Below are positions 22,204 to 39,519 of a DNA stretch of 64,000 nucleotides, in pieces; positions within the stretch are counted from its first letter, which is position 1; each line of letters begins with the position of its first letter. The position numbers and the translations under genes were made by a program. The stretch spans positions 1-64,000 of the forward strand of contig CAXXXD010000001.1 of assembly GCA_963663385.2 (NCBI GenBank), read 5' to 3'. The notes beneath the pieces were generated by a model. It worked only from the letters and a program-made list of their open reading frames with translations, was not told where the DNA came from and searched no databases. The stretch comes from Oceanispirochaeta sp. GTDB taxonomy: Bacteria > Spirochaetota > Spirochaetia > DSM-2461.

Positions 22204-22373
22204 ATATGGATCTTTGTGCACTATGTATTCAGCCCGTACCATATTTTGATCCATATAAAATATCATCTTTCACGATAAAACCATTTTCTGGATTTTCTCT
22301 CAGCTGTTTCCTATCTTTATTTTTTCCACCAATTTCAAATAAATTCCCATCTATTTCAAAATCACCGTAAGCG

Positions 22374-23924
22374 TCAAATGAACACAGGTCCTTTATCAAC
22401 TGTAATATCTTCTTTTATATTCCAGGGTAAAAGAGCTTCCCAATCCTGTTCATTTTTAACTAAGGGAGCCATGGTAAACACAAAATATAGATAATCAAAG
22501 GGATTCAAATCGTTCTGTTTCGCGGTTTCAATCAGAGAATACATCCCGCAGGAACTGTCTGCCCCTTTGGGATTCCCGGAAAATAACCAGTTTTTCCTCC
22601 CCAGAACAAAAGGGCGGATAGCGTTTTCACTGGCATTATTATCCGGAGTCAGATAAGGACTTTCCAGATACCGAATCAAATAATCCCATTGATTCAATGC
22701 ATAGTGAACAGCCTTTCCTAAAGCACTCTCGGGTAGAACATTTTCAGATCGTTTATCCAGCCATCGTTTAAATGCATCAAGAATAGGTCCGGCCTTGCTT
22801 TTCCGTTGTTCCAGAAAATCTTCTAAAGATAATTTCTTGTTCCTTAGATCATTTTCCAAGGCATATAACTTCTTGATATGCTTGATCCCTTCCAGAGCAC
22901 TTTTAGATTTTTTACTGGCTTTATCAGCCTCAAAGAACTTCCTTCTGGCATGAGCAAAGCATCCAACCAGAGAAATATCCGGATTTCCCTCCACTGCAGT
23001 TTTGTACCCTTGATATCCATCGGTTTGGAGATACCCTTCAAAATCTGTGAGAAAATTCTTTGCATGTTCCGATGCCCGTGTCGGATGGTATTCGTAATAA
23101 ACAGCTGGCTGTCCCGGAGGACCGCCTCTGGCCAGCCACATATAGGATTTTTGTCCGTTATCCCGACCCGGTTCATTCAAAACCTGTACGGTTGTTTCAT
23201 CCATTTGAAGCACCGGACCGGATTTTAAGTGTGTTTTCAGTAGTTCAAAGAGCGGGAGAAGAGCTTCATAAGCCTTTTTCTGCCAATTACTCATGTTCTG
23301 ACGGCTAATCCGGGCTCCCATGCGCTCAAACCGCTTTTCCTGGCGGTAAAAAGGAAGATGATCCACATACTTATTTACCATCAAAAATGCCAGCAGACCA
23401 GGAGTGACAATCCCTTTGGGGATGATGGAAGGCTCCGGAGGGGCAATCTTTACAGCAGGAACATCTTCATCGGCGGTTCCTTCACAATTACCACAGGCAT
23501 ATTTAAACCGGATAATCCGCTCTACCCAGATACGAGGAGGGATTACATGCAGCTTCTCAGATATTTCTTCTCCGATCTTCTTCAGTTCCGTACCACAGGC
23601 ACAGGTTTTCTCATCCTCAGGAATATCTAGAATCTTTTCCTTACGGGGAAGGTTTTCATCCAGAGGTTTTCTTCCTGTTTTCTTACGCTTGTAAGAGGGG
23701 ATTTCCTGTTCTGCAGAAGTATCTTCCTCAGGTGTCTGTGATTCATCTGTATCAAATAATTCAATTTGTTCCGGAATATTTTCTGCTCTTCGGCCGAATT
23801 GCCTATGTAGAGCCAAAGCCAACTTTTCTTCAAGAAGCTGATATTTCTTTTCCCAGTTCTGGTTCTGAGCTTCAAGTTGTGAAATATACTCCTGGGCCTC
23901 TTTTGGAAGAGCTGCTTTATCCAT
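22374..23924 (-). CDS. tnpC: IS66 DDE transposase TnpC
   Basis: KYVDHLPFYRQ, DET, LQTDGY, CFAHARRKF and DNNASENAIRP...GRKNWLF motifs. Confidence 0.95.
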   Translation of the reverse strand: MDKAALPKEAQEYISQLEAQNQNWEKKYQLLEEKLALALHRQFGRRAENIPEQIELFDTDESQTPEEDTSAEQEIPSYKRKKTGRKPLDENLPRKEKILDIPEDEKTCACGTELKKIGEEISEKLHVIPPRIWVERIIRFKYACGNCEGTADEDVPAVKIAPPEPSIIPKGIVTPGLLAFLMVNKYVDHLPFYRQEKRFERMGARISRQNMSNWQKKAYEALLPLFELLKTHLKSGPVLQMDETTVQVLNEPGRDNGQKSYMWLARGGPPGQPAVYYEYHPTRASEHAKNFLTDFEGYLQTDGYQGYKTAVEGNPDISLVGCFAHARRKFFEADKASKKSKSALEGIKHIKKLYALENDLRNKKLSLEDFLEQRKSKAGPILDAFKRWLDKRSENVLPESALGKAVHYALNQWDYLIRYLESPYLTPDNNASENAIRPFVLGRKNWLFSGNPKGADSSCGMYSLIETAKQNDLNPFDYLYFVFTMAPLVKNEQDWEALLPWNIKEDITVDKGPVFI

Positions 23925-23965
23925 AAGAGAATTTTAGCAAAGACAGGAATTTGAGTAAATTCCTT

Positions 23966-24313
23966 TCAGGCAATTTCTGAATATTTCAATGTTTCGTGGG
24001 TTTTCCAGAAGTCTATACCCTTCAGAAGCATAGAGAGTTCTTCAAAACTGATGGCTCTGGCGGCTTCTTGCGTGTCTGGCCAGGGGAAACGGTGTTTTTC
24101 CAAACGCTTTTGCCAGAGGCAAAACCCTGTCTGATCCCAGTAGAGGGCTTTCAGAATACGTCTCTGTTTATTACAGAATAGGAAAAGAGAACCGCAAAAA
24201 GGATCAAGAGCCATCTCATCCTGAACTTCTACGGCCAAACCGTTTATGGCTTTCCGCATATCAGTAACACCGGGTCGGATGAATATCTTGATTTGAGAGA
24301 AATCCTTAATCAT
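23966..24313 (-). CDS. tnpB: IS66 accessory protein TnpB
   Basis: TDMRKAINGL...LFLFCNK...LYWD..GFCLWQKRLE motif. Confidence 0.95.
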   Translation of the reverse strand: MIKDFSQIKIFIRPGVTDMRKAINGLAVEVQDEMALDPFCGSLFLFCNKQRRILKALYWDQTGFCLWQKRLEKHRFPWPDTQEAARAISFEELSMLLKGIDFWKTHETLKYSEIA

Positions 24314-24647
24314 TGCACTGTTCCAGGGTCTGAAGTAGTTTCTTCAATGTCATTGTATCAAAATCCCGGTCCAGTATTATCCGGTAGGATTTCCATTGTA
24401 ATTCAATGGATGAGCCTGTGACTGTTTCCCTGGGTAGTTTAGCAGAAACTTCAACCAAATATTGTGGTTTCCGTTTGTATCGCTTCCTCCATCCATGGAA
24501 TGTTGTTGCTTTTAGGTTTTTATCCCGGCAGAATTGATTTACTGATTTGCCAGATAGTTCCCATTCTGCCAGAAGAGCATAGCGCTGATCCATTTTATAT
24601 TGTTTCAAGGAAGACCTCCTTGTGAGATTGTACTGGGAGGTCTTCAA
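24306..24647 (-). CDS. tnpA: IS66 accessory protein TnpA (HTH)
   Basis: W..SG.SV..FC.......TF.GWRKR motif; first gene of the IS66. Confidence 0.85.
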   Translation of the reverse strand: MKTSQYNLTRRSSLKQYKMDQRYALLAEWELSGKSVNQFCRDKNLKATTFHGWRKRYKRKPQYLVEVSAKLPRETVTGSSIELQWKSYRIILDRDFDTMTLKKLLQTLEQCND

Positions 24648-25157
24648 AATTATTAGATGCGGTTTATTTGACGGTTACAAATCACCAATCTTGCTTACAT
24701 GAATATTATATGTTTTCTGTTTTCAGTTTATAATGGTTTGAGATGTCTTCAAATATTGTCTTATCTATAATTCTCTGGATCTTTTGACTGTAAGATTCCT
24801 GACCTTCAAGAACAAAAGGGTAGTATCCTGAACCAGGATATTCCTTGAAATAACCTTTCAGTTTTTTTATTTCACCGATTTGGGATTCAAAGGAGGATCT
24901 ATTATTAATAATCTCCTTAGGTAGTTATGAAATTACTTATCACTAGAGTACACTCCAATAATCGTTTAGATATATTTGACTATACTCCAATATTAAGAGA
25001 TTTCAAGTCTATTCCGGGTAGACCAGCGGCAAAATTCTCCTCGATTCCAACAGTTTAAAATTAGCACACTGATCGCGCATGGCAAAGTAATCTTTATCCT
25101 TCTTCAGGTAGTGATTCGCTCCAGTAAGGCTGACTGCTGCATGCGTTTGTACCACCA

Positions 25158-26234
25158 TTATTTTTTCAGTAAATCATACAGAGAACGATTTACATATATT
25201 ATTTCCTTTCCCAAACGAAATGATTCTAAAACACCAATAGATTCCAACTCTTTTAAATATTTGCTTGCAGTTCTTCTTTCGGCGATTCCTGCCTCCACTA
25301 GATATGCGATCTTCGTATATGGTTGGATAAAGAGTAATTCAATTAATTCTTTTGAATAAATTGTTTTAGGTAATTTATCTTTACATTCCTCAATAGTCTC
25401 ATTCAGTAAGTTTATAATTGAAGAAATAATTTCATACGTTTCTTTTGATGTTTCTTCTACTGCTTTTAGCATATAGATTATCCAATCTTCCCATCCTTCA
25501 GTTTTGTGCATCTTTTGAAGCAATCGGTAGTACTGGTTTTTATTCTTTATGATATAAGAACTTAGAAATAATATAGGTGTGTCTAGTAATCCTTTCAGCA
25601 CAAGGTATAATACATTGATGATTCTACCTGTTCTTCTATTTCCATCATAAAATGGGTGGATTGATTCAAATTGGTAATGGATAATTGCCATTTTTATCAA
25701 ATAATCTGTTTCATCATCTGAATTAATGTATTTCTCAAGATTTGCTAGCAAATCTTTTATTACATCTTCATTGTCTGGGGGAGTATAGAGCACTTCTCCT
25801 GTAGTATCGTTAACTAAACTGGTTCCTGGCAATTTTCTTAAACCAGCCGAATTTTGTTCCAATTCTTCTTGAATCGACAGGATCGTATTTACTCGTAATA
25901 TGTCGCTTTTCTTAATTTCTGAATATCCTAACCATAAAGCTGATCTATAGCTAAGAACCTCTTTAGTCGCCGGATCTATTTTTTGTTCTTTTGCTACAAT
26001 CGCTTTATACAGATTGTCTTGTGTTGTAATAATATTTTCAATTTCAGAACTGGCCGATGCTTCCTTGAGAATAATAGAGCTTAATAATATTGAATCATTC
26101 GGAAGGAGCGAACAGTATCCTTTTAAACGGGCTAACTCCCTGTTGGCTGAAATAGCATGTTTTAATACGTTTTTAGACTCAATGTCGTGCTTAGGAGGAA
26201 GTTTAGGTAGATCATTATTTGGTATCTTACTCAT
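25158..26234 (-). CDS. Fic family protein (Fic_N + Fic + C-terminal wHTH, SoFic-like); integron cassette
   Basis: SSEIEN inhibitory helix; HPFYDGNRRTGR motif (G>R variant). The start is probably MSKIP at 26234. Confidence 0.9.
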   Translation of the reverse strand: MSKIPNNDLPKLPPKHDIESKNVLKHAISANRELARLKGYCSLLPNDSILLSSIILKEASASSEIENIITTQDNLYKAIVAKEQKIDPATKEVLSYRSALWLGYSEIKKSDILRVNTILSIQEELEQNSAGLRKLPGTSLVNDTTGEVLYTPPDNEDVIKDLLANLEKYINSDDETDYLIKMAIIHYQFESIHPFYDGNRRTGRIINVLYLVLKGLLDTPILFLSSYIIKNKNQYYRLLQKMHKTEGWEDWIIYMLKAVEETSKETYEIISSIINLLNETIEECKDKLPKTIYSKELIELLFIQPYTKIAYLVEAGIAERRTASKYLKELESIGVLESFRLGKEIIYVNRSLYDLLKK

Positions 26235-26243
26235 AACATGTTC

Positions 26244-26271
26244 ATTGTAACCCAATAAATGTACACGTCAA
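26244..26271 (-). promoter_or_regulatory. Putative sigma70 promoter inside the Fic cassette (TTGACG-16-TACAAT), possibly leaderless
   Basis: The -10 ends 9 nt before the ATG and no Shine-Dalgarno is visible. Confidence 0.55.
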
Positions 26272-26340
26272 TAGCTCATGTGCATATATTGATGATTTTT
26301 GCTCATAAACACTTACTCGTGTTCACGGTGTGTATATAAC

Positions 26341-26778
26341 GAGACTGTAGAAAAACTCAAACTGGGTATTTTCAAGGTTCCCCTGAAAGCACTCATTTGG
26401 AAAAATCATTCATCTCTTTGATTTCAATATTCAATCCGATTAAAACCGGCTATATTCAACTATAATTGGTTTATCCTACGCTATACCCATTCTTTAGCAC
26501 TTTTCCGTATTCCTACGCACTATACTGCTGGATTTTCCCGATATTACGCACCATACAGTACAACAACCACTGTGTCCGGACCTTTTCCGTACCCCGTAAA
26601 GTAAAGCGATTCAGCTTTTTCATTCCGGCAATATGTCCGAATACAGGTTCTACCGTACTCATCCGTTTTGCATAAACTGATCGTCCATAGGGCGTATCAA
26701 TTTTCTCCTTCATACCCTTTTATAGAATTTTACCATGAATTGGCTGAGAGCTGTTGAAAAGGTGACTTTTTCAGTCTC
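26341..26778 (-). mobile_element. Internally deleted IS1182 (438-bp non-autonomous derivative) inserted in an attC R' box
   Basis: Near-identical to both ends of 31788..33578, and flanked by a duplicated AAC. The right inverted repeat lacks 3 nt. Confidence 0.93.
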
Positions 26779-26884
26779 AACATTCTTTTAAGCTGCAACG
26801 CGTCAATTGGCGCAAAACTTGCCAAGCGAAGCGACCAGCAAGTTTCGTGACAATAGCGTTGACAGGTTGAAGCAGTTGTTAGGC
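26779..26884 (-). other. attC site of the DUF4386 cassette (R' interrupted by the IS1182 derivative)
   Basis: R'' GCCTAAC contains the gene's stop codon. Central palindrome ACGAAACTTGC...GCAAGTTTTGCG. Ends GAATGTT; the empty site restores GTTATAT. Confidence 0.85.
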
Positions 26885-27484
26885 AATCTTTCTTTTATTT
26901 TTTATCACATTTATTGGAAACCAAAATATTAAAAGAACTTCTCCAATAAATGTAATTATTGAAATTTCCAATGTACTATTTGGTTGTATAATTTTTACAA
27001 CAGTATCAAATATATAACCAAATCCAGAAATAAATACTAAAACACCTAAAATCTTGGAAATAAATTTCGATTTATAAATCAAATAAGCCAAAACAATCAA
27101 ATGTATTCCAAATACAATTAGGCCATAACTCCAAAGTATATTAAATTGTGAATATTTTAAATTTGGTTCGGTTTTACCTAAATATATATAGATTAGTATT
27201 AATAATAGATAAACTGCATAAACGATTCTTAGTATCATGCTAATTGTTGCTATTTCTTTGTTTACATTAATAAAAACATTTTTTAATGTATATCCAACTA
27301 ATATATCAAGTATAGCTACCAAGCAAAATAGTAACAAACCAAATCCAAGCATTGAATTAATATTTTGATTTGAATATTTTTCTAAAATATTTAGTCCCAA
27401 AGGAGCTATAACAGCCATAACTAATAAGTAAAATGATGATATAAGTTTGTTCTTATCCATTAATGAAAGTGTGATATTTTTCAT
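26879..27484 (-). CDS. DUF4386-like membrane protein; integron cassette
   Basis: About 6 TM segments; WSYGLIVFGIHL and IGEVLLIFW motifs; AGGAGG RBS; stop codon inside R''. Confidence 0.7.
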   Translation of the reverse strand: MKNITLSLMDKNKLISSFYLLVMAVIAPLGLNILEKYSNQNINSMLGFGLLLFCLVAILDILVGYTLKNVFINVNKEIATISMILRIVYAVYLLLILIYIYLGKTEPNLKYSQFNILWSYGLIVFGIHLIVLAYLIYKSKFISKILGVLVFISGFGYIFDTVVKIIQPNSTLEISIITFIGEVLLIFWFPINVIKNKRKIA

Positions 27485-27508
27485 TCTATCCTCCTACAAT
27501 TACTAACA

Positions 27509-28240
27509 CTAAAAACACTGAAATTCCGCTTCTTCCCTACCCCGACAATGAATTAACAGATCATCCGCATAGCGAGCAAAAACAAGCTGAGGATGCTCTC
27601 GATTCATCCATTCATCAAAAGCATAATGTAGAAACAGATTCGCCAGCAAAGGACTGATGACGCCACTCTGTGGCGTCCCCAGTTCTCTGTCAATGACATT
27701 TCCATCAGCATCCTCTGCGGGGGCCTTCAACCATCTTTCAACATATAGCACTACCCAGGCGGGCGGATTATGATGCCGCACCGCTTTCAGTAATAATTCA
27801 TGATTAATGGTATCAAAGAACCCTTTAATGTCCACATCGACAACCCAGTCATATTTCCAGCACCTCTTCCGAGTTATTGCCACAGCCAGATGGGCCGACT
27901 TCTTCGGTCTATACCCATAGGAATCAGGATGAAACAATGGTTCGAGAAGCGGTTCAGATACATTCTGGCCGTCATCTGAGCGACTCGATCAAGCACCGTC
28001 GGGATTCCCAATGGTCTTGTCCCACCGCTCTTTTTAGGGATGTCTACACACAGGACAGGTTTGGGAAAGTAACTTCCGGAAGACATACGATTTCAAAGGG
28101 CGTACAGGATATCACTCTCCCGATCTTTCATCCCCTCCAGAGTCATACCATCCACACCGGCAGGCTCCCTTCTTCCTTACCTGTTTGTACGCCTTCCAAA
28201 GCACTTGCTTTGAAATAGCAAACGGTTTTGTCTGTCCCAA
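27509..28240 (-). pseudogene. ltrA: Group II intron reverse transcriptase pseudogene
   Basis: RT motifs IPKKSGGTRPLGIPTVLDR, DSYGYRP, DIKGFFD, GTPQSG and YADD. Frameshifts near 28165 and 27955, an in-frame TGA at 28093-28095, and a C-terminal truncation. Confidence 0.9.
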
Positions 28241-28797
28241 TAATTCCTCCCGAATATATTCCGGTTGATTACCGGACCAGACTGAATATGTCAGCTCCTT
28301 CGCTCCAGTCTCATTACAAGACCTTCAACACTACTACGAGCTGATCCGTCCCTGTGCCGCGCATCGGTACTTTCTCGCTTCCAGTTCTTCTGTTACGCGA
28401 TTTTCCCTTAACATCACGACGACAGGTTCCCACGTTCCTCAATATCGCCTGTCTTTGGCTCGTGCCGCCTTTATACCGGAGACCGCATACGCACTTAATC
28501 AGGTTACGCCGCATACTTATTCATGACGCATGCAACGCCCGTCATTTTCGATCTCATCGTACAAACTTTCGATACCTCATCGACGGTTCACTTTCGTTCA
28601 CCTTCCAAAGACTCACCTGACAGGTTCAATTCCTGCTTTTTCCGTCAACGTTCACCACAAAGGCTCTTAACCGATGCAGCTTGCGGTGGTTTGAAACCTG
28701 CTCCTGAAAGCCGATTCCGAGGGGCCTACCCTCATCAATACTGTAGTTACGAAATTAACTCCATCTATAAGATTAAAGGTGCCCTCTCGTGGCACAC
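27509..28797 (-). mobile_element. Group II intron, RmInt1-like (bacterial class D), 3'-truncated, inserted in an attC left arm
   Basis: 5' end GTGTG at 28797. Domain I motifs GGAATCGGCTTTCAGGAGC and GAACGAAAGTGAACC. The RT breaks off just after YADD, so the maturase domain, DV and DVI are absent. Confidence 0.9.
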
Positions 28798-28817
28798 GTT
28801 GCATGGCATTGTTAAAT
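28798..28817 (-). other. Left arm of the ATPase-cassette attC (R'' ATTTAAC + AATGCCATGCAAC), cut by the intron
   Basis: R'' is the exact complement of this cassette's core GTTAAAT (30112..30106). The arm matches the other attC left arms. Confidence 0.85.
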
Positions 28818-28826
28818 AGCCTCCAG

Positions 28827-30038
28827 CTAATAGAGGAATCCGAATAGGTGTAATGGTATTTCATATTTCGATCCGTATAAAATATCATCTTTGACTATAA
28901 ACCCGTTTTCTGGATTTTCTTTCAGCTGTTTTCTATCTTTATTTTTTCCACCAATTTCAAATAAATTTCCATCTATTTCAAAATCACCGATTTTACTTAC
29001 ATGGATATTATATCCTGAGTTTTTAACCATATTAATAAAAAATATCTCTCGGATAGTTCCTATATGCGATTCAAACCCGATTTCATTTGATATTGAGGAA
29101 TATAGATCGGGGTTATCTAAATACATTTTTTCTGTTTGTTTTAGAATTTGGCTTCCAGCTTTATTCATTGATAATAAAGCGATGAGTCCTGTTTCCTGTA
29201 ATATTTCCAAATAATTCTGAACAGTCCTATTATCAAGTCCAATGTTCTTGGAAATACTATTTCGGTTTAGTTCTCCTGGTGGTATCGTTGCCATATAAGC
29301 CAGTATCCGTTTGAAATTGGATAGATTTTCTGTTTTTAATTTATAGTGGTTTGAGATGTCTTCAAATATTGTTTTGTCAATAATTCGCTGGATCTTTTGG
29401 CTATATGAACCCTGACCTTCCAGCACAAAAGGGTAGTATCCTGCACCAAGATACTCCTTGAAATAGCCTTTCAGTTTCTTAATTCCGCCGATTTTTGACT
29501 CAAAGGCAGATCTATCATTAATTATTTCTTTGAAAGAGATGGTTCCGGTATCAGCTATATCATTGAATAATAAATATTCTCGAAATGATAATCCCCCAAT
29601 TCTGTAAATTACACCTCTTCTTGATAGATCATATGTTCCTTTAATCAGATCTATACTGGAACTTCCTGAGAATATGATCTTTATATCCGGGTATGAATCA
29701 TAGAGATTTTTTAATTCCTGGTTCCAATTAGGGTATTTATGTATTTCATCCAGGAAGAAATATCTTACCCCATAATCCTCATACAGAGTATTTACAAATT
29801 CAAGTAATGTGTTTTGAGAAAAGTAAATATTGTCAATTGATGCATAGATGCATTCATCAATATTTGGAATTTGTTCTTTTATGTACTGAAGAAGTAATGT
29901 TGTTTTACCTGTACCTCTGGGACCAATTAATCCTGTTAGTCGATTATCTGTATTGAAATCAGAGTATATGTATCTATGGTGTGAATATTTAGTGTATTGT
30001 AGGAGTCTTTTATAGGTATTTATGAAATTGCTTATCAT
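28827..30038 (-). CDS. AAA_14 ATPase with C-terminal DUF4143-like domain; integron cassette
   Basis: Walker A GPRGTGKTT, Walker B FFLDEIH, SGSSS, LSRR and EIGGKNK. GGAG RBS before the ATG at 30038. Confidence 0.9.
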   Translation of the reverse strand: MISNFINTYKRLLQYTKYSHHRYIYSDFNTDNRLTGLIGPRGTGKTTLLLQYIKEQIPNIDECIYASIDNIYFSQNTLLEFVNTLYEDYGVRYFFLDEIHKYPNWNQELKNLYDSYPDIKIIFSGSSSIDLIKGTYDLSRRGVIYRIGGLSFREYLLFNDIADTGTISFKEIINDRSAFESKIGGIKKLKGYFKEYLGAGYYPFVLEGQGSYSQKIQRIIDKTIFEDISNHYKLKTENLSNFKRILAYMATIPPGELNRNSISKNIGLDNRTVQNYLEILQETGLIALLSMNKAGSQILKQTEKMYLDNPDLYSSISNEIGFESHIGTIREIFFINMVKNSGYNIHVSKIGDFEIDGNLFEIGGKNKDRKQLKENPENGFIVKDDILYGSKYEIPLHLFGFLY

Positions 30039-30073
30039 TTGAGTACACTCCAATAATTATTGCCATATTTTTG

Positions 30074-30101
30074 ATTGTACTCTATTTTTATAAAATATCA
30101 A
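30074..30101 (-). promoter_or_regulatory. Putative cassette-internal sigma70 promoter (TTGATA-16-TACAAT)
   Basis: An equivalent TTGAAA-16-TATAGT is kept in the decayed copy near 24980-25010. Confidence 0.55.
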
Positions 30102-30105
30102 GCCT

Positions 30106-30211
30106 ATTTAACGCCCAAATCAGCTGCAACTTTGTCCCGAAGGGTTGGCGTAGTTTTTGAGAAATCAAAAACTATGACAAAAAAGTTGTCAGTTGCATTT
30201 GATTGTTATGG
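30106..30211 (-). other. Intact attC site of the TerB_N cassette (106 bp)
   Basis: R'' CCATAAC contains the stop codon; ATGCAACTGACA arm; central TAGTTTTTGA/TCAAAAACTA hairpin; GTTGCAGCTGAT arm; R' GTTAAAT. Confidence 0.92.
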
Positions 30212-31729
30212 CGCCATCTTTTTTATAAGTTTCTCTTTTCTTTGCTCAAAATCTTCTATTGATTGTCCGTATTTAATTGCTCTATTACATACATTTAATG
30301 CTTTTTCATATTCTTCTTTTTTATCATAAATTATGACTAAACGTTTAAATGCCGGTATATTTCCAATAAAGCCCTTTTCTTTTATTCCTTCAATTTCCTT
30401 TTTTATATTCTTATCTCCAGTAATAGAAGCAAGTTGTTTGGCTCTATCTATTTCTTCTTTGATATTGGCCTCAGTCATTTCATCAAGAGTGTCTAAATCT
30501 AATTCACAATATTCAATACATTTATCTATATATTTCTCATCTAATGATCTGAATTTATAATAAAAGTCTTGTAATTGTATAAAAGAAAAATGTCTGCTTA
30601 CTGGACTTCTTTTATTCTTTGAGAGTTCGCTCAATAATTCTTTCTCTTGCTTCTCATCAAATTTAATTACTTTATTTGGTTTCGCTGGGGCTTTCTTTTT
30701 AGGAAGGGATTTACCTTCTTTCCTCATTTCGGCAAGTTTCTTCTTTACGTCTTCATGAGCAGTTTCTAAAAAGTTATACATTTCCCTTTTTAATTTGAAA
30801 TTCTCAGCTAAAAGGGGAATAGAGATTGATTTATCGATAATGGACATGTTTGCAAAGATGCCAACATCTTGTTTATTGACTTTCTTTATTTCTGATGCTG
30901 TCAAATATTTCTTTAATTCGATCTTGTCTGTGCCAAGTTTGGATATTACAATATCGGTGAGGCATTGTAAAAATAATTCCGGATATTTCTTAATATAATT
31001 CTTATTATTAAATTCAAAGGTCGATGCCATGCGCATAATATCCTTTGGGAATAGAGGAATATCAAAACTGTAATAGCAGATCAAGAATAAATTATCAGAA
31101 AAAGCTAATTCATGTTCTTTATCTAGTGATTTAATAAAATCTAAAACAAGATCGCCTCTGTTATGCAACATACATGATAGAACTACAGCATTTGCTGAAT
31201 AAGATTGAAATGATTTATTTGTATGAACATCTCTTAATTTCAGAATAACGGAAATTGCTTTTTCAAAATTTCCTGATAATAGATGTCTTTCCAATCCATA
31301 ATATAAGATAAAAACAAAACCAATATCGATTGCTGTATTGTATGGATTTGCGAGTAAATTTAAATAAACCCATTTTTGTTCCGGTGATAACTCTGTATAT
31401 GTTGGATAATATGATGGCCTTTCAACTAAACGAATATCTTTTGGTTGAGATATTTTTTGATTTGTATATATAAGACTTGGTTCTTCATGATTTTGAAACG
31501 AAATTGTTATTCGGTAACCATCAATTTCGAAGAAATTTTCATCTCCTTTTGATTGAATATAATTTTTGTATTTTCCATCCCCTATCCAAATTAGTTCTTT
31601 TAAATCTTCGTGTATTGTTAAACCTTTTACCGATAGACTTGCATTTTTAATAGGAGCAATTTCTTTCTTTTCATCTTGTGATTCTTTAAATTTCTGTTTT
31701 GTTCTTTTTCCAAAATTAAATAATCCCAT
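30206..31729 (-). CDS. TerB N-terminal-domain protein with a C-terminal TPR-like region; integron cassette
   Basis: PSYYPTYTELSPEQKWVYL..L...IGFVFILYYGLERHL (TerB_N-like); C-terminal AFKRLVIIYDKKEEYEKALNVCNRAI. Confidence 0.7.
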   Translation of the reverse strand: MGLFNFGKRTKQKFKESQDEKKEIAPIKNASLSVKGLTIHEDLKELIWIGDGKYKNYIQSKGDENFFEIDGYRITISFQNHEEPSLIYTNQKISQPKDIRLVERPSYYPTYTELSPEQKWVYLNLLANPYNTAIDIGFVFILYYGLERHLLSGNFEKAISVILKLRDVHTNKSFQSYSANAVVLSCMLHNRGDLVLDFIKSLDKEHELAFSDNLFLICYYSFDIPLFPKDIMRMASTFEFNNKNYIKKYPELFLQCLTDIVISKLGTDKIELKKYLTASEIKKVNKQDVGIFANMSIIDKSISIPLLAENFKLKREMYNFLETAHEDVKKKLAEMRKEGKSLPKKKAPAKPNKVIKFDEKQEKELLSELSKNKRSPVSRHFSFIQLQDFYYKFRSLDEKYIDKCIEYCELDLDTLDEMTEANIKEEIDRAKQLASITGDKNIKKEIEGIKEKGFIGNIPAFKRLVIIYDKKEEYEKALNVCNRAIKYGQSIEDFEQRKEKLIKKMAP

Positions 31730-31787
31730 AAATTACTCCTTTTTCAATACTAAATGACTACACTTTATTATTTTTTGTCGGCATAAC

Positions 31788-33578
31788 GAGACTGTAGAAA
31801 AACTCAAACTGGGTATTTTCAAGGTTCCCCTGAAAGCACTCATTTGGAAAAATCATTCATCTCTTTGATTTCAATATTCAATCCGATTAAAACCGGCTAT
31901 ATTCAACTACAATTGGTTTTATCCAACGCTATACCCATTCTTTAGCACTTTTCCGTATTCCTACGCACTATACTGCTGGATTTTCCCGATATTATGCACC
32001 ATACAGTACAACAACCACTGTGTCCGGACCTTTTCCGTACCCCGTAAAGTAAAGCGATTCAGCTTTTTCATTCCGGCAATATGTCCGAATACAGGTTCTA
32101 CCGTACTCATCCGTTTTGCATAAACTGATCGTCCATAGGGCGTATCAATTTTCTCCTTCATACCGGCCATGGGATTGCTCCCTTTTCCATCCGGCACTTC
32201 CTTCAGTATGGCAACCTGACGGGCCTTTGTCGTTTCCTTTCTTATACATTTTGAACGAAGTTTACAGTCACGACAATTGCGTATATGCCCTTGATAGGAC
32301 TTTCCGGTATACCGACCGTCATTGCTTCTGAAGTTGGGGGATTTCAGCCACATGGCATGACCGGCAGGGCAGATCAGTTGGTTGGTTGCCGTATCCATAT
32401 AAAAGTCTTCCGGACTAAAATAGTGTTTTCCTTTTTCCGGTTTCCAGTTGGCGACTTTCTTTTTGTATCTGCCGGCATCCTGGAAGGCAACATGCCTTTT
32501 CCTGAACTGATTGTCCGGGATATAGGCATCGATCTTCTTCTCGCAGATCATCTGCATGTTCTTTTTATTATGGAATCCTGTATCCGCTGTTATGGTGACA
32601 TTGTTATAGATGTGGTCATCTATGTGAGATTCTTTGCAGCTCTTATCAATCCCCTCAAGTATCTCTGTTAGGTGTCCTGATTCGTTTACATCACCGTATG
32701 TATCGGCAAATATAATTAATTGATGCTTGTCGTCTACTGCAGCAATGCCATTATATCCCTGTATAACGCCATGTCCGGTGGACATTTTAGCGCTTTCGTT
32801 ATCAACTATATTGCTTTTAATGGGCTGATCCTGACTCCCGAAACGGTCATAATGGGTATCAAGCCATTTGTAGATTTTTTCTGTTTTTGCCTTTAGCTTT
32901 TTGATGGCTTTCTTTTCTTTTTTACGCTGCTCTTTATCTTCCCAACTGGCATCCGTATTCTTGTGTTTTTCAATCAGATAGTTTACGGATTTCTCTATTT
33001 TCTTTGTTTTGGCAAATAGTTCCGCTTTGGTTCCGCTCCATTCCTTTGAACAGTTTGAGGAGATCTTGCAGCCGTCAATGGCAAACATGTTTTTGCCGAT
33101 CAGTCCCTGTGTGTAGCAAACAGAGAGTATCATGGTAAATAGGGTTTGGCACTCTTTATGACGGGAAGAGATAAAATCGGCAATGGTTGTAAAGTGGGGT
33201 CTGGAATCGGCGGCTAGCGCCATACAGACGATATTCTCCCGGCATAACTGTTCAATTTTTCTGCTGCTGTTTATGCCTTTTGAATAGGCGTAAAGGACTA
33301 TTTTTAAGAGGATGGCAGGGTCGTAGGCGGGAGCTCCGGTTTCATCATTTTCGTAGTGGTTTTCAAAAACTGACATATCAATTTGATTGTCTATCAGATG
33401 GCATAATGTATATTCGAATGTTCCTGGTAAAATCTGTTTTTTAAAGCTTACGGGGATCATCATTGTCTGGGTATAAGAATACTCTTTATATCTGGCCATT
33501 ATTGAAAACCTCCCTTTTATAGAATTTTACCATGTTTTGGCTGAGAGCTGTAGAAAAGGTGACTTTTTCTACAGTCTC
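31788..33578 (-). mobile_element. IS1182-family insertion sequence (complete, 1791 bp) inserted in an attC R' box
   Basis: 15-bp perfect terminal inverted repeat GAGACTGTAGAAAAA; flanking AAC duplication; single transposase gene. Confidence 0.95.
31961..33499 (-). CDS. IS1182-family DDE transposase
   Basis: GAPAYDP..LLK..LYAY, PHFTTIADF, AIDGCKI, ADTGF and VEPVFG motifs. Confidence 0.95.
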   Translation of the reverse strand: MARYKEYSYTQTMMIPVSFKKQILPGTFEYTLCHLIDNQIDMSVFENHYENDETGAPAYDPAILLKIVLYAYSKGINSSRKIEQLCRENIVCMALAADSRPHFTTIADFISSRHKECQTLFTMILSVCYTQGLIGKNMFAIDGCKISSNCSKEWSGTKAELFAKTKKIEKSVNYLIEKHKNTDASWEDKEQRKKEKKAIKKLKAKTEKIYKWLDTHYDRFGSQDQPIKSNIVDNESAKMSTGHGVIQGYNGIAAVDDKHQLIIFADTYGDVNESGHLTEILEGIDKSCKESHIDDHIYNNVTITADTGFHNKKNMQMICEKKIDAYIPDNQFRKRHVAFQDAGRYKKKVANWKPEKGKHYFSPEDFYMDTATNQLICPAGHAMWLKSPNFRSNDGRYTGKSYQGHIRNCRDCKLRSKCIRKETTKARQVAILKEVPDGKGSNPMAGMKEKIDTPYGRSVYAKRMSTVEPVFGHIAGMKKLNRFTLRGTEKVRTQWLLYCMVHNIGKIQQYSA

Positions 33579-33692
33579 AACGCCCGCATCAGCTGCAATT
33601 TTGTCCCGCAGGGTTGGCGCAGATTTTGAAATGAGCGAAGCGACTTCAAAATCTGTGACAAAAAAATTGTCAGTTGCATGCGTTTGTTCTAC
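33579..33692 (-). other. attC site of the Lamassu cassette (R' interrupted by IS1182)
   Basis: R'' GTAGAAC; ACAAACGCATGCAACTGACA arm; CAGATTTTGAA/TTCAAAATCTG hairpin; ends GGGCGTT. The empty site restores GTTATGC. Confidence 0.9.
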
Positions 33693-33746
33693 AGTGTCGA
33701 CCAGTTACCTTGTTATATTTGTAATAGCTTTAGGTCATTAATATCA

Positions 33747-35591
33747 CTATTCAATAAATCCACGTCTATCACCTTCTGTATTACCGCAAAAATATATGAA
33801 ATTAATTTTATTAATAATTTTCTGCTGAGGAGTTTTGTTATCAAAAACGATAATCTGCCTATCTTCGCTTGTATCTGATAGATAATCAAAAAATCGATCT
33901 TGAATATCTTCACTTATTTCATCATTAGTTTCTCGTAGAGCATTCTTCCCATGATAGGTTGTTAAAGGGGAATCTAAAACAATTAGAGGATTAAATGATA
34001 TTCCTTTTTCAACGACCCAATCTAGTATAGAGATTAACAACGCAGAGTATGATATTGCTCTGAATCCTTTTCCAAAACTCTTTCGAGTTTTTCCAGAAAT
34101 TGTGTAATCAAAAGTTCTATAACCAGTATCAAAGGTAATTGATTCCCAACCTGGATAACCAAATCCTTCTAAAATGGAAGATAATTTTGTACAAAAATCT
34201 TTTATATGAAGAAATTCTTCCGAATGTTCAGAGTCAGGCTTTGATTTCCCTTTTTCAATTTTCTCATTTAATTCAGCTTCTTTTTCAAATAAATAGTTTA
34301 TTCTTTCAGTAAGAATTGTAACCTTATTGGAAATAATTTGATTTTGTTCAAATCTTTCTAATTTTTCCTTAAATGGTATTATCTTTTCATTATTATGCTT
34401 TTTCTTTTTAACTGCCTCTATCTTACTTTCAGACAATACACTCAACTCTGAATTAATATCCAATACTTCTTTTTCTAAATTAACAATCGATTCACTAATA
34501 TCATTTTTTTTATTGGATATTTTTTTGTATTCTGCTTCAATAGATTCATTAAATACTTCTTCATCAAAATCAGAATCAAGTTCTGATGTAGTAATTTCAC
34601 TATCACAAATTGGACATGCTACAGTATTCAATTGAGAAATCAAGCTATTACCTTCTGACACAAATTGCATTCGTTCTAAATCTGAATTATAGTGCTCAAG
34701 TAATAACTTAAAACGATTGATTAGTTCTTTCTTGAATTCCTTTTTATTCTCATTTTCAAGAATGTCATCATTTATCTTCATTATTTCTTTATTGATATCG
34801 CTAGATACAGTCAAGATTCCATCTATGTCTAGTTTTGTTTTGTTGATAACTTGAGAATAATCGGTACCATCATCGAGAAGAGCTTTTTTAGCAGAAAGAG
34901 CCGTGATTTCCCTATTTGTTTCATCTCTCTCTGAAATGATGAACTCAATTTGACCTAATATATGAGTTTTCTTTTCCTTTTCAATTAAAGGGTTAATAAA
35001 ATTGCTATCATCCGTCCCGGATAATATATATCTAAATAGTGATTGATAAAAAGTTTGATCTGGATATTGACCAGTAGCATAAATAGGTGACTTTTCAGTG
35101 ATAATTCTATCCTCTGGGATAACAGTAAATTTCCTTAAGTCTCTAAAACTAATTTTCTTCTTCTCTGTTTTTTTCTTTTTAAATTCTTTGTTATACATAC
35201 CGCATGTTTTTAATAAGTAGACAGACAAATTATTTTCAGAAGAGGAAGAATGGTTTAACAGAAGCTTTTCTTCTTTTTTCGTATTATCATAGTTTTCAAA
35301 AGTACATTCTTTAATATAAACATCTGTATTTTTGATGTTTCTATATATGGTTAGTGGTTTTTCTTTATATGTGCTTATTTGTAGATAAAAATCTTCATAT
35401 CCAATCGCTTCAGGAATTTCTTTTGGATTTTCACTTCTTCCCAATAAGAAATCTATACACGAAAAAGCGTATGATTTCCCTGTATCTGAAACACCAGAAA
35501 TTAAATTAAATCCTTTTTTAAATTCTAATTGAGATTTTTTGTTTTGAGTTCCAATAACAACTAGTTTTTTTATATAGAATCCATCAAGCAT
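33747..35591 (-). CDS. lmuB: SMC/Rad50-like ABC ATPase of a Lamassu / ABC-three-component system (LmuB)
   Basis: Walker A GVSDTGKS, coiled coil with a CPIC zinc hook, signature GKGFRAI, Walker B IVLDSPL. Confidence 0.85.
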   Translation of the reverse strand: MLDGFYIKKLVVIGTQNKKSQLEFKKGFNLISGVSDTGKSYAFSCIDFLLGRSENPKEIPEAIGYEDFYLQISTYKEKPLTIYRNIKNTDVYIKECTFENYDNTKKEEKLLLNHSSSSENNLSVYLLKTCGMYNKEFKKKKTEKKKISFRDLRKFTVIPEDRIITEKSPIYATGQYPDQTFYQSLFRYILSGTDDSNFINPLIEKEKKTHILGQIEFIISERDETNREITALSAKKALLDDGTDYSQVINKTKLDIDGILTVSSDINKEIMKINDDILENENKKEFKKELINRFKLLLEHYNSDLERMQFVSEGNSLISQLNTVACPICDSEITTSELDSDFDEEVFNESIEAEYKKISNKKNDISESIVNLEKEVLDINSELSVLSESKIEAVKKKKHNNEKIIPFKEKLERFEQNQIISNKVTILTERINYLFEKEAELNEKIEKGKSKPDSEHSEEFLHIKDFCTKLSSILEGFGYPGWESITFDTGYRTFDYTISGKTRKSFGKGFRAISYSALLISILDWVVEKGISFNPLIVLDSPLTTYHGKNALRETNDEISEDIQDRFFDYLSDTSEDRQIIVFDNKTPQQKIINKINFIYFCGNTEGDRRGFIE

Positions 35592-36099
35592 TTATTGTCA
35601 CTCCTCGGAATAGTGGCTCATTTACAAATTCATTTCCCCAGTTTTCAATATTTTTATTTATGTATTTATCTAAGTCTATCTCTGTATATAATTCGAATTT
35701 TGCTGTTATCCATCTTATTCTATCTTTCAACTTTTCTGTATATTCACTTCTAAAATGCTCAAGAAATGGACTGAGTAATTCTGTTTGAGTATAAAAGATT
35801 CCTTTTTTATTCATTTCAACCTGTAAGAGTTCTTTTGAAATCATTTTATTCAATCCAGCCCGAACTGCTTTTCTTTTTATTAACAATTGTGTAGAACGGT
35901 AGGGGGCTTCGGGATGCAGGTTTTTCGGGCCACCAATATCTTCTGTGAAAAGAATAAGATAATCAAAAGAAATTATTTGGTTTAAGGAAAGTGGCTTGTT
36001 AAACCCGTTTATTATAAATAAAGATCTTAACCCTAATTCCAGTGAATGATTAAATAATTGGTTATTTTTATAGTAAGAAAGCATTATTCTTTTACCCAC
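35584..36099 (-). CDS. lmuC: ABC-three-component middle component (LmuC-like)
   Basis: FNHSLELGLRSL...FDYL...DIGGP.NLHP motif; overlaps both neighbouring genes. Confidence 0.8.
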   Translation of the reverse strand: MGKRIMLSYYKNNQLFNHSLELGLRSLFIINGFNKPLSLNQIISFDYLILFTEDIGGPKNLHPEAPYRSTQLLIKRKAVRAGLNKMISKELLQVEMNKKGIFYTQTELLSPFLEHFRSEYTEKLKDRIRWITAKFELYTEIDLDKYINKNIENWGNEFVNEPLFRGVTINA

Positions 36100-37166
36100 C
36101 TTATTTTTTTATCATTGACCAAATGATGACATATACCTTCTTTATCTTGCACTTTTATTTCATAAAAAAGTGGATTGTTATTGAATGAACCTCTTTTTGC
36201 TTCTTTTATTGCTTCTTTCAGTCTAATAAAACCATTCTCAAAATCTGATTCAACAATATCAATGATCAAGCTAAAGATTTCATCTTTTAATTCTTCAAAA
36301 GAATTACTATTATACGGTAGCTCATCTCTACTGAATTGATACAATGAATCCGCAATGTAAAAACTATCCCGTTGTCTTTGAAAATGATTAAGCAATTCTT
36401 GTTTATCAGAAATATCTTCTATACTGGAAATAAATCTATTAAGATAATCTGAATAAGCAGCAAATATTTCTCTAATATAAACCAACTCATTCTTTTCTAT
36501 ATCTTTATTTGCCTTTGGCAGTTCTTCTCTTGTTTTATTTAAGCCTCCACCAAACCATCTAGAAAAGAAAGGTGTCTGTCTAAATTGATCAATGAAAGTA
36601 TTTGGCTCAAGCCAGTCTATAATGGAAAAATTGAATGTATCGAAATATTTTAATATCTCACCTTCTAACTTTATATTTTCTTTCGTTGTAATTCCTTTTT
36701 CACATTTATCAGCCCAATTGTTTTTTAATTCCTGTTTCAATTTTTCAGGGTTTTCTATAAGTCCTAATAATTTTGGACCTATTCCCTTAGGTGAAACAAA
36801 ATAGTATTTTCTTGGAACTGAATAATCTTTATTAAAAGTATAGTAAATTAATTTACCGAGCTCGATATAAATTTCTGCGGGTGAAAGCATAGATGAATAG
36901 TGCTTACATTGATAAAGATCCCAAACTTGCTTCTCTTCATTGACTATTGCACATACATCCCGGCCTTTATCACCAGCTCCCCCAACACCATAGACTTTTA
37001 TATACTGTTTTGTCACATGATAATGTGCCCATTGTAGGACTAATTCCTCATATTGATCTTCGTCAAGAGCTTCAAGTATCTGATTTGGTTTCAATACAGG
37101 ACCTAATAGTATTTCACTGTTTGATAACCGAGAAATATTTTTTGGTTTTTCTAGTTCTGTAAACAT
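36084..37166 (-). CDS. lmuA: Lamassu effector: PD-(D/E)xK nuclease plus ABC-3C C-terminal domain (LmuA)
   Basis: YEEL...GGAGDKGRDV...YQCKHY nuclease motif; C-terminal GICHHLVND..IRWV motif. Confidence 0.8.
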   Translation of the reverse strand: MFTELEKPKNISRLSNSEILLGPVLKPNQILEALDEDQYEELVLQWAHYHVTKQYIKVYGVGGAGDKGRDVCAIVNEEKQVWDLYQCKHYSSMLSPAEIYIELGKLIYYTFNKDYSVPRKYYFVSPKGIGPKLLGLIENPEKLKQELKNNWADKCEKGITTKENIKLEGEILKYFDTFNFSIIDWLEPNTFIDQFRQTPFFSRWFGGGLNKTREELPKANKDIEKNELVYIREIFAAYSDYLNRFISSIEDISDKQELLNHFQRQRDSFYIADSLYQFSRDELPYNSNSFEELKDEIFSLIIDIVESDFENGFIRLKEAIKEAKRGSFNNNPLFYEIKVQDKEGICHHLVNDKKIRWVKE

Positions 37167-37315
37167 TTAATGTTTCTACCTCATTTACATGACTATTTAT
37201 AATCGATTATTAAGCAACTCTCCCACTGGGATATTCTCTAAATTCATTCTTTCAAAGGACAACTTAAATTATGTAAAAATATATCACTTTTTCACAACAT
37301 AATTAATTTGCATCT

Positions 37316-37490
37316 GTAGAACGCCAAAATATGCTGCGGAGCGGCCTGGCCGAAGGACAGGTACAGGCGCTTTTCTTGCAGACTTATTTTAAACAGTAAT
37401 TTGTTTTTAAGAAAGAACTATTTATCAGCATTCTGTATCTCTGCAAGAAATGTGATCTGTAGCGACGACAGTATCATTTTCTTGTTATGT
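37316..37490 (-). other. Long attC site (175 bp) of an ORF-less cassette
   Basis: R'' ACATAAC; AAAATGATACTG arm pairing with GCAGCATATTTT; TTTCTTGCAGA/TCTGCAAGAAA stem; R' GTTCTAC matches the Lamassu R''. Confidence 0.8.
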
Positions 37491-37818
37491 CTACAGCATT
37501 TTGTAAATCACCGATGCCATATCAGGCAAGAATATCTTAATAAACGTAGGTGAAGGCGAATTCCCTTATTTTCACTTCTGCCAGCCGCAACCGGCGTCAA
37601 AGATTGATAATCAGTGTAGTGTGAGCATCAATCAACCCGTATCAAAACCCTAAAACCTACTAAATCATCTGGCAATTATGAAAGAACCAGAAGTACAAAA
37701 TGTGTTCGATATAACTTATTATCTCTTGAACAAGGTAATCCCAAAATCCATAGAATTACCCTGCACCCCCGCAGCATAACTGTCAATTCTAACAATTCCA
37801 CTGACACTCCCAGAGCAC

Positions 37819-38919
37819 TCATTCAACTAGTTCAAAATCCGGATTGAAACCCAAAGTCATAACCACCGACCCATTATATGAACAGGGAATCCCGGCTGAT
37901 GTATCACTCAAATCCAAAGTAATATCAGCATCATCATAGGAAATACCGGAAATAGTAATACCGGCACATTGAAGAATAATCGGATATGTTACTCCATCAT
38001 TGTAGTTATACCACGATTCACATACACTTGAGCCGGGATCTTCACAGATCCAACCCAACCTATTACTTCCAACAAAATCAACGGTATACACTTCACCTTC
38101 ATGGGTGGCACTCCAGGCCGTACCTGCTAGCTTATCAGGAAATCCCTCAACGTATTCCATTGTGTAACTATTCTCCAGATACTCCACAGTAACAGTACTG
38201 CCCGAACAGGAATAACTAAAACTTTTAACATCTCCCGAACGTTCCATAACATTGAGAGTATTCCCATCAATTCCAATAATTACACCATAGATATTTGCCG
38301 TATATAAAGCATCATGAAAATCTATTCTGGTCCGGCTATAGTGATTGCATCCAAAAAACCCAACCCCGTCTGTTATCCATAATGAGTTTTTCAATTCCAC
38401 CGGTGCCGACTGCACCCTGTGAAAAGTAAAGGAGACATCTGAGGGATCTTTCAATATCATGGTATTTTCATCCGGAAAAGATGCCGTAAAATCCATATCT
38501 GCAGTCGTATCCATTGTAACCGTCAGATCACCGTCAGCCGGCATAGGGATGGTAGCATCTACTTCATAAGCATCATCTTCGTAGTCGTACTTAATCTCTG
38601 AATCAGTAAATTCGATCTCCCAGTACACCCCTGAACCGTAATGGCACCAGTAGCTATCTGCATAATCAGAAAAACTTACCGAAGGCGTAACCACAACCGG
38701 ACTATCATCCTGCGTATTCGAATCATCACTGCTCTGATCCGAACTGGCATCAGTAGAATCACTCGTATTATTTTCATCCTGCGCCTGATCGGCAGAATCA
38801 TCCAGAACCTGCTCCGTACTATCCTCTTTATCTTTACTGCTCTTTGAAGCAAAAGGATTCTCACAGGAAACTAATAAAATCAGAAATAAACCCAGTAAAA
38901 TGGCAGTTGTACGCCTCAT
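37819..38919 (-). CDS. Hypothetical acidic lipoprotein
   Basis: Lipobox LVSC, a Ser/Asp-rich linker, then beta-rich domains. Confidence 0.7.
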   Translation of the reverse strand: MRRTTAILLGLFLILLVSCENPFASKSSKDKEDSTEQVLDDSADQAQDENNTSDSTDASSDQSSDDSNTQDDSPVVVTPSVSFSDYADSYWCHYGSGVYWEIEFTDSEIKYDYEDDAYEVDATIPMPADGDLTVTMDTTADMDFTASFPDENTMILKDPSDVSFTFHRVQSAPVELKNSLWITDGVGFFGCNHYSRTRIDFHDALYTANIYGVIIGIDGNTLNVMERSGDVKSFSYSCSGSTVTVEYLENSYTMEYVEGFPDKLAGTAWSATHEGEVYTVDFVGSNRLGWICEDPGSSVCESWYNYNDGVTYPIILQCAGITISGISYDDADITLDLSDTSAGIPCSYNGSVVMTLGFNPDFELVE

Positions 38920-39506: not shown

Positions 39507-39519
39507 CATAAACAACCTC

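Follow-up and report, generated by a model that had tools for sequence, protein, structure and literature searches.

attC-specific group II introns have so far been treated as a class C speciality, with hairpin recognition on the bottom strand. The group IIC-attC introns (e.g. S.ma.I2) are monophyletic attC specialists that split cassettes from their attC; they belong to class C, lack exon-binding site 2 (EBS2), insert antisense into the bottom strand, block Pc and bring an outward promoter (PMC3001079). RmInt1, a class D intron, has no endonuclease and requires pairing of EBS1, EBS2 and EBS3 for homing (PMC4075523), and its targets lie mainly on the lagging-strand template (PMC5894124). Here we analyse a 64-kb stretch of Oceanispirochaeta sp. 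DNA (assembly GCA_963663385.2, contig CAXXXD010000001.1, positions 1 to 64,000), called the window throughout, in which the remnant of a group II intron follows the left arm of an attC site in an array of cassettes. We hold, with a probability of about 0.8, that this remnant is a decayed, endonuclease-less class D intron of a sub-lineage that homes to the attC top (cassette-sense) strand. Its anatomy, the positions of its guides, their covariation and the recurrence at one site can be read from the sequences compared, which strongly support attC targeting in sense orientation through base pairing. We further infer that the intron is spliced, that it retrohomes into the lagging-strand template at replication forks and that it affects the mobility of cassettes.

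Anatomy of the intron remnant

On the minus strand, the AAA_14/DUF4143 gene stops at 28827 and is followed by CTATTTAACAATGCCATGCAAC and then by GTGTGCCACGAG..., which begins at 28797. The intron start GTGTG at 28797 stands directly 3' of AACAATGCCATGCAAC (28813-28798), so that an earlier note on this DNA, which had set the start after ATGCAAC in an attC left arm, was correct on this point. Compared with an intact relative of 1880 nt (L086:1501-3380), the window copy shows an identity of 85%, with 1077 matching positions among 1266 aligned nt and 11 small indels, and the homology stops at 27523. The 3' end at 27509 given in the earlier note is therefore corrected, position 27509 being the stop of the final reading-frame fragment. 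Missing are about 600 nt that comprise the maturase domain, domain V (DV) and domain VI (DVI); since DV and DVI are present in L086, the window element is a remnant.

With regard to group II membership, the window copy has the 5' GUGYG (as GTGTG) and the domain I-IV core, matched by RF01999, the sole Rfam family matched across the entire window (gathering score 36 bits). The catalytic DV and the branch-site DVI are lacking through the 3' truncation at 27523. A reverse transcriptase (RT)/maturase gene is present in domain IV, though frameshifted and without domain X. By three-frame translation this pseudogene has at least two frameshifts and one in-frame stop and ends shortly past the YADD motif; alignment to intact L086 places indels at about 28164 and 27955, and the last fragment matches RVT_1 (E 6e-24). 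The 26 nt past the breakpoint, TTCAGTGTTTTTAGTGTTAGTAA, end in GTGTTAG and are similar to the R' ends of neighbouring attCs, for which reason we think that a deletion probably took the 3' part of the intron along with the attC centre. The window copy itself is dead.

Guide sequences and their predicted target

Relatives were collected by searching one genome per species with a 142-aa RT fragment, and the best 80 of 216 loci (59-67% identity) were used. A search by nhmmer with the first 558 nt of the intron gave 74 rows, which represent most of these 80 loci. The 5' end was set at GTGYG in 52 of 68 loci examined; the other 16, without a recognisable GTGYG near the expected place, were dropped, and the ends assigned to three loci (L013, L036 and L017), which pair poorly with their exons, may be mis-set.

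A hairpin of domain I presents GTTGCAT (28536-28530), the exact complement of ATGCAAC, and aligns to a conserved AAAAC-stem-loop-stem-GGAT element of the relatives. Its 6-bp stem is paired at 92.8% in 37 sequences, with changes on both sides in all six pairs; the stem score was reached by none of 500 shuffles and all slid controls scored lower. The loop pairs with the last seven letters of its own exon at six or more of seven positions in 32 of the 36 relatives with a flank and at all seven in 17, the corresponding values for foreign exons being 16% and 4%. Because pairing with own exons is far above the foreign-exon rate, we identify the loop GTTGCAT as EBS1. An upstream loop (AAAG...) pairs 5/5 with its own exon (-16..-8) in 25 of 37 relatives, compared with 21% of foreign exons, and on the same ground is taken as EBS2; its register of -15..-10 agrees with the one validated in the sister intron G130. 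EBS3 was assigned to the column at intron nt 327, where complementarity to the first letter of the 3' exon tops all columns (33 of 39 non-redundant relatives; next best column 22 of 39). The hairpin and both guide positions proposed in the earlier note from the window alone are thus borne out by the comparison of about 40 relatives.

The predicted target of the window intron is ACAAAC (-15..-10), ATGCAAC (-7..-1) and T (+1). In its own 5' exon, the intron-binding site IBS1, ATGCAAC, lies at 28804-28798 and the IBS2 register, ACAATG, at 28812-28807; at this occupied site, ACAATG-CC-ATGCAAC, IBS1 pairs 7/7. ATGCAAC indeed recurs at the same place in two unoccupied attCs, at 30198-30192 and 33679-33673, and GTTTGT matches ACAAAC of the attC after the Lamassu cassette 6/6 with the spacing of the occupied site, where the match is 4/6, all as had been noticed before. 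The composite target ACAAAC-NN-ATGCAAC-T, which specifies 14 letters, was searched for on either strand of the 5.3-Mb genome. One site has no mismatch and two sites have one, against about 0.04 and about 1.7 expected by chance at uniform base composition, and all three are attCs. In the attC after the Lamassu cassette all 14 letters are found, at 33687-33672; 13 of 14 are found in the attCs at 30191 and at C3:744676 on another contig, and no further genomic site has one mismatch or fewer.

Recurrent insertion into attC sites

Twelve insertions in attC-type left arms were found in total, the window copy and 11 others, distributed over this genome, three genomes related to it, a genome from another family and four contigs from metagenomes (window, G000:C3, G005, G004 with two, G017, L115, L122, L124, L125 and G441 with two). 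They lie 13 nt past the AAC of R'' in eight copies, 12 nt in three and 11 nt in one. The second remnant of the same genome is at C3:756348, after ATAACAAAAACTTGCAGC and behind a different gene. A search of 38 genomes of the family revealed close copies (89-90% identity) in three genomes, all flanked by attC-type left arms (Table 1), and two more insertions, both in G441, came from 401 sampled genomes of the phylum. A metagenome scan with the 20-mer of the intron 5' end gave 11 loci, among them five recognisable introns, four of which follow (A/C)TAAC plus 12-13 nt while the fifth resembles G130. The exon in front of L124 and L125 is CTAACAACTGCTTCAACC, which is also the left arm of the unoccupied attC at 26882 in the window. 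The matches L117, L118, L119, L121 and L123 are due to chance in GC-rich DNA, and L116, which ends 33 nt past the match, was left unjudged. Four further fragments (G121, G223, G082 and G020), whose flanks are of the TAAC type or form hairpins, have decayed too far for classification and were excluded from the counts. A relative on a Vibrio parahaemolyticus plasmid (H16) was ruled out as an integron copy, as it is located in the tra region, and among plasmids searched with the G005 intron-encoded protein (IEP) no relative closer than 54% identity was found.

EBS1 is readable in eight of the twelve copies and takes six distinct forms (Table 1). Its pairing with the own exon is 7/7 in six copies, six plus one G-T in one and 5/7 in one. 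Across the readable copies EBS2 is GTTTGT or GTTGT, facing ACAA(A/C), and EBS3 differs as the pairing predicts: the A of the window copy faces an attC +1 T, the T of the G005 copy a +1 A.

Table 1. Copies of the attC lineage with their 5' flanks and with the pairing of EBS1 and IBS1
Copy	5' flank	EBS1	IBS1	Pairing
Window		GTTGCAT	ATGCAAC	7/7
G005	...ATAACAAGCAATTGAAGT	ACTTCAA	TTGAAGT	7/7
G004 (C25)	...ATAACAAAGACTTGAAAT	GTTTCAA	TTGAAAT	6 + one G-T
G004 (C11)	...ATAACAATGATTTGCTAC	ATTGCAA	TTGCTAC	5/7
G017	...TTTAACAAAGCCATGAAC
L122, L124, L125		GGTTGAA	TTCAACC	7/7
G441 (L128)		GTTGAAA	TTTCAAC	7/7

The G005 intron (L086:1501-3380) is intact: its 1880 nt encode a 424-aa IEP with RVT_1 and GIIM, and its DV/DVI matches RF00029 (62.7 bits). 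The 3' exon is the remainder of an attC, ending GGGTGTTAT, and the insertion point falls exactly at the end of L''. The joined exons fold as a canonical attC, at -19.3 (top) and -22.5 (bottom) kcal/mol, their shuffles giving -8.7±2.5 and -8.0±2.3 kcal/mol, respectively. The other flanks were called attC from their R''-type motif, their position after stop codons and their likeness to complete attCs. In a maximum-likelihood tree of the first 345 nt with 52 rows, the six attC copies of at least 345 nt share one branch, with a support of 95/91 and, after removal of the EBS columns, of 92/91; the next relatives are G130 and G199. The outer intron of G130 (L126, G130:C4) interrupts the 5' arm of an imperfect hairpin of 80 nt, which lacks AAC/GTT cores and folds at -17.3/-19.7 kcal/mol (shuffles near -10), and G199 sits after a terminator-like hairpin. 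The base-pairing, sense-oriented route to attC suggested in the earlier note has accordingly gained 11 further insertions, with EBS1 fully or largely matching the own attC where it is readable, including one intact copy flanked by both halves. As to the exon flanks of homologues, those of the twelve copies are attC-type arms and other class D relatives use different targets: 19 of 52 5' flanks, read by eye, end in the codons of RT "YADD", and further relatives interrupt transposase genes or the DV of another intron.

The YADD group includes L075, L076, L080, L081, L083 (Sorangium), L031, L047, L054, L126 and others, and such insertions into other retroelement genes make twintrons. G130 is a twintron of this kind, with an outer intron like the attC lineage and a YADD-type intron inside its own YADD. 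L124 (reverse strand 412-759) is a 348-nt mini-intron without an open reading frame (ORF), in which domain I through EBS1 is joined directly to DV/DVI.

Class assignment

The G005 IEP is 49% identical to RmInt2 of S. meliloti over 411 aa, running to the last residues. The IEP of L012, from the sister group, is 61.9% identical over aa 18-423 to a multi-copy intron present on both GR4 megaplasmids, which by its copy distribution is RmInt2, of class D (PMC5894124). It is also 58.7% identical to an intron of B. pseudofirmus pBpOF4-01 (NC_013792.1 50216-51484), and Table S1 of PMC3552965 assigns NC_013792.1 52005-50133 to class D; as the former interval lies within the latter, this comparison points to class D as well. 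Class C structures score far lower (151.6 bits). RF01999 matches RmInt2 too, and unrelated host introns at the loci match RF02005. The 424-aa G005 IEP consists of RVT_1 and GIIM only, without the endonuclease (En) domain, as in class D. The RNA is IIB-like, with EBS1, EBS2, an EBS3 of one nucleotide and, in DV, a GNRA tetraloop, which is GAGA in ten of ten relatives. Assignment to class D (IIB3, RmInt1/RmInt2-like) therefore appears well supported in a comparison made without class E, F, B or CL references. It is not formally proven, because classes D and E are sister classes (PMC3552965) and no class E sequence was included; the class D claim of the earlier note accordingly stands on IEP identity to RmInt2 and the pBpOF4-01 entry, RF01999, the missing En and the GNRA loop, and not on a full phylogeny.

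Class E or F was considered since class E introns have been found in a CALIN, i.e. an attC array without a nearby integrase (PMC7923331). It was ruled out for now by the 4-nt DV loop, IIE and IIF introns having a loop of 5 nt (PMC3753933), and by the closeness of the IEP to RmInt2 and the pBpOF4-01 entry. Membership in IIC-attC was rejected, as the RNA is of the RF01999 type, EBS2 is present and the intron shares its strand with the cassette genes.

The cassette array

The complete attCs of the window (33692-33579, 30205-30108 and 26882-26798) start with ..AAC, on or just past the stop codon of a cassette gene, and end with GTT..; they have an inner second pair of imperfect repeats (L''/L') with one extra base. 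The bottom strand gives the more stable fold in the attC after the Lamassu cassette (-25.9 versus -24.1 kcal/mol for the top strand) and in a second complete attC (-25.3 versus -19.4 kcal/mol). These sites thus have the structure expected of attCs (R''/R', L''/L', an extrahelical base and a position at the 3' end of a cassette ORF), and from our reading of the folds the top strand has G as its extra base instead of the usual C. No tyrosine recombinase was found among the 20 ORFs scanned in the window, and since no integrase was found there, the array is a CALIN. An integron integrase is encoded on another contig, at C2:1688005-1688940 (TIGR02249, 381.2 bits; cut-off 265). The same attC family occurs on C2, C3 and C4, with at least three further arrays (C2:1678595, C3:740068-756347 and C4:1180556-1191755); judged by the sites themselves, the window CALIN and the integron proper have one attC family in common.

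Between about 22 and 40 kb the G+C content of the window is low and every gene is on the minus strand. The cassettes carry largely defence genes, for LmuA/B/C, SoFic, PDC-S01 and a SngA-like protein as detected by PADLOC (Table 2), and the array at 22240-39548 is a defence island. A second copy of the ATPase gene (22240-22367 and 24679-25013), 84-93% identical, is interrupted by an IS66 element (22374-24647). An insertion sequence (IS) with a DDE_Tnp_1_6/DUF772 transposase at 31783-33578 and its 463-bp deletion derivative at 26336-26798 are both inserted exactly at the attC R' core, with GTT on either side; the junctions read ...GCGTT/GAGACTG...CAGTCTC/GTTATGCC and ...AATGTT/GAGACTG...CAGTCTC/GTTATATAC. 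The element may be an IS that targets the attC core and does not belong to the known IS1111-attC group. Elsewhere in the window, a 2704-aa ORF lies on the minus strand at 1318-9432, and ORFs on the opposite strand recur about every 1971 nt, a pattern that points to long tandem repeats within the gene of a giant protein.

Table 2. Positions of the intron remnant, its guides and the surrounding cassette features in the window
Feature	Position	Strand	Remarks
group II intron remnant	27523..28797	-	1275 of ~1880 nt; domains I-III and 5' two thirds of the domain IV ORF
5' exon, attC left arm (R'' AAC + L'')	28798..28813	-	same family as the complete attCs
domain I core	28615..28733	-	Rfam RF01999 group-II-D1D4-2, 108.5 bits, E 2e-21, full model
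EBS2 GTTTGT	28561..28566	-	in loop AAAGTTTGTA; homologous loop in 37 relatives
EBS1 hairpin	28523..28545	-	stem ATGACG (28545-28540)/CGTCAT (28528-28523), loop GGCGTTGCATG
EBS3, A, intron nt 327	28471	-	predicted pairing with target +1 T
intron-encoded RT pseudogene, RT domains 0-5 only	27523..28272	-	three-frame translation
probable surviving attC 3' end (L'-R', GTGTTAG)	27497..27522	-	joined to the intron by deletion
upstream cassette gene, AAA_14/DUF4143 ATPase, PADLOC PDC-S01	28827..30053	-	same strand as the intron
downstream cassette gene, DUF4386	26879..27484	-	directly after the remnant, by which it is now fused to the upstream cassette
unoccupied attC after Lamassu cassette	33579..33692	-	ACAAAC-GC-ATGCAAC/T, perfect predicted target, 0/14 mismatches
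unoccupied attC after TerB_N/SngA-like cassette	30108..30205	-	predicted target with 1 mismatch; ATGCAAC 30198-30192
unoccupied attC of second sequence type (CTAACAACTGCTTCAACC...)	26798..26882	-	left arm equals the 5' exons of L124 and L125
Lamassu LmuA/B/C	33747-37166	-	PADLOC
SoFic	25158-26255	-	PADLOC
SngA-like TerB_N protein	30206-31729	-	cassette array
PD-Lambda-2_B-like HTH protein	39120-39548	-	cassette array

Alternative explanations

Other class D relatives use many other targets, such as YADD codons, DV of introns and transposase genes, and the sisters G130 and G199 lie outside canonical attCs, so that an ordinary class D intron of a lineage without attC specialisation could have landed ectopically in an attC by chance. 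Yet twelve insertions, spread over five genomes and four metagenome contigs and preceded by different cassettes, share one position in attC, six different EBS1 sequences match their own sites, the attC group forms one clade and the genomic sites that fit the guides best are all attCs; a chance landing is hence very improbable. One ancient insertion might instead have spread passively without retrohoming, through cassette shuffling by the integrase, array duplication or recombination. Cassettes and arrays are duplicated in this genome (the second AAA_14 copy, four arrays with one attC family) and most copies are fragments, both of which suit such a history. Passive copying would not, however, yield EBS1 differences that track L'', and between the copies the upstream cassettes and the L'' sequences do differ, with EBS1 differing in step; moreover, a split attC should be a poor integrase substrate. 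We regard passive spread as unlikely.

It could also be the structure of the attC hairpin, or contacts made by protein, that mainly determines the site, as it does for class C introns, with the pairings serving splicing only. The sister G130, too, interrupts the 5' arm of an imperfect hairpin, one that lacks AAC/GTT, top-strand hairpins have been speculated to guide IIB introns (PMC7923331), and the EBS2-IBS2 pairing is dispensable for in vitro splicing in IIE/IIF introns (PMC3753933). On the other hand, a folded top strand would pair L'', i.e. IBS1, and make it unavailable to EBS1, homing of the class D intron RmInt1 needs all three pairings (PMC4075523) and EBS2 is conserved opposite the conserved letters of R''; this explanation has a slim chance at best. 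Several observations nevertheless weigh against homing of a class D sub-lineage to attC by base pairing. EBS2 pairs incompletely at the occupied window site and EBS1 of the G004 (C11) copy mismatches its exon at two positions. Both attC arms are seen for a single insertion, that of G005, and the joined exons of L124 fold like shuffles (-8.7 versus -6.7±2.2 kcal/mol). The nearest sisters, G130/L120 and G199, are outside AAC/GTT-type attCs, most copies of the attC lineage are fragments, and class D was set apart from its sister class E without a class E reference sequence. The gap between IBS2 and IBS1 is 2 nt here and 1 nt in RmInt1 (PMC4075523). The integron proper on C2 carries no copy and, relative to the GC skew, is oriented opposite to the two arrays that hold one. 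Finally, for all copies mobility and splicing are deduced from sequence, and both copies of this genome are dead.

Proposed mechanism and strand choice

In the mechanism that we propose for attC homing, EBS2 would pair with the conserved inverse-core region of R'' (ACAA plus 1-2 nt, -15..-10), EBS1 with the variable L'' box (-7..-1) and EBS3 with +1, and these three pairings would place the insertion always at the end of L'', 11-13 nt past the AAC of R''. As attC families diverge, EBS1 would change to match and EBS2 would stay anchored on ACAA. Because of its sense orientation the intron would be carried by cassette transcription, and could be spliced out and express its protein from cassette promoters. 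An insertion would part the two attC arms by about 1.9 kb, and in the window a later deletion would have removed the 3' third of the intron and the attC centre, thereby fusing two cassettes.

Both copies of this genome are on the G-rich strand: the GC skew is -0.041 in the window, where the intron is on the minus strand, and +0.042 at 700-800 kb of C3, where it is on the plus strand. In 25 of 30 sedentary integrons, the attC bottom strands lie on the leading-strand template (PMC5371416), which would leave the top strands single-stranded at replication forks. Since top strands would thus be exposed, an endonuclease-less intron may be expected to become a sense-oriented, top-strand attC specialist, an argument that stands here on n=2 because the integron proper on C2 differs in orientation and lacks a copy. 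More tentatively, a specialist clade might parasitise chromosomal integrons, with EBS2 locked on the universal R'' inverse core and EBS1 co-evolving with each attC family; it would exploit the non-recombinogenic top strands that sedentary arrays expose on the lagging-strand template, immobilise and fuse cassettes by splitting attC sites and decaying afterwards, and help to turn arrays into CALINs, and might be widespread (e.g. Vi.vu.I1, see below).

If our reading of attC homing is true, retroelements with different recognition logic have independently colonised attC sites on at least two occasions. It would also connect, in a way that can be tested, the orientation of integron arrays towards replication with their invasion by endonuclease-less introns, and it suggests a mechanism for the freezing and fusing of cassettes, in this case in a store of anti-phage defence cassettes. 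The intact G005 relative could be a natural scaffold for guide-programmable insertion at attC sites.

Comparison with known systems

The earlier note had left open whether attC homing by class D introns is unreported. No description of such a lineage was found in the literature searched, with subscription journals outside its scope, and part of the ground had been touched before. An unusual IIC intron was reportedly observed by Rodriguez-Martinez in 2012 in the attC top strand of Enterobacter cloacae, in sense orientation; it is of class C. UHB.I2 (CL1) and H.ha.F1/F2 (class E) are, like the introns described here, sense IIB introns beside attCs, in integrase-less arrays of halophiles, but their IEPs belong to other classes and they come from the integrons and CALINs of Sonbol and Siam 2021 (PMC7923331). 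According to the available text of that article, they are one full copy just downstream of an attC without exon conservation and two 5'-truncated fragments, and neither a recurrent site nor an EBS/IBS logic is presented there (PMC7923331). Vi.vu.I1 of Vibrio vulnificus ATCC 27562 (GQ292873 3620-5549) is a single-line entry in Table S1 of PMC3552965, given there as class D with the host "CI cassette", so that a class D intron had already been recorded in a chromosomal integron; the available text of its source paper labels the element only "reverse transcriptase" (PMC2761259). These IIB introns near attC and Vi.vu.I1 are the nearest prior art.

With RmInt1 and RmInt2 the lineage shares an IEP of about 420 aa with RT and maturase and without En (49% identity to that of RmInt2), the Rfam family of domain I, the guides EBS1, EBS2 and EBS3, and the location on the G-rich strand, i.e. 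on the lagging-strand template. Their targets are the insertion sequences ISRm2011-2 and ISRm17 (PMC5894124), whereas here the target is attC. In contrast to the IIC-attC introns, which likewise are attC specialists, the lineage described here is of class D and inserts into the top strand in sense orientation, guided by EBS2, EBS1 and EBS3.

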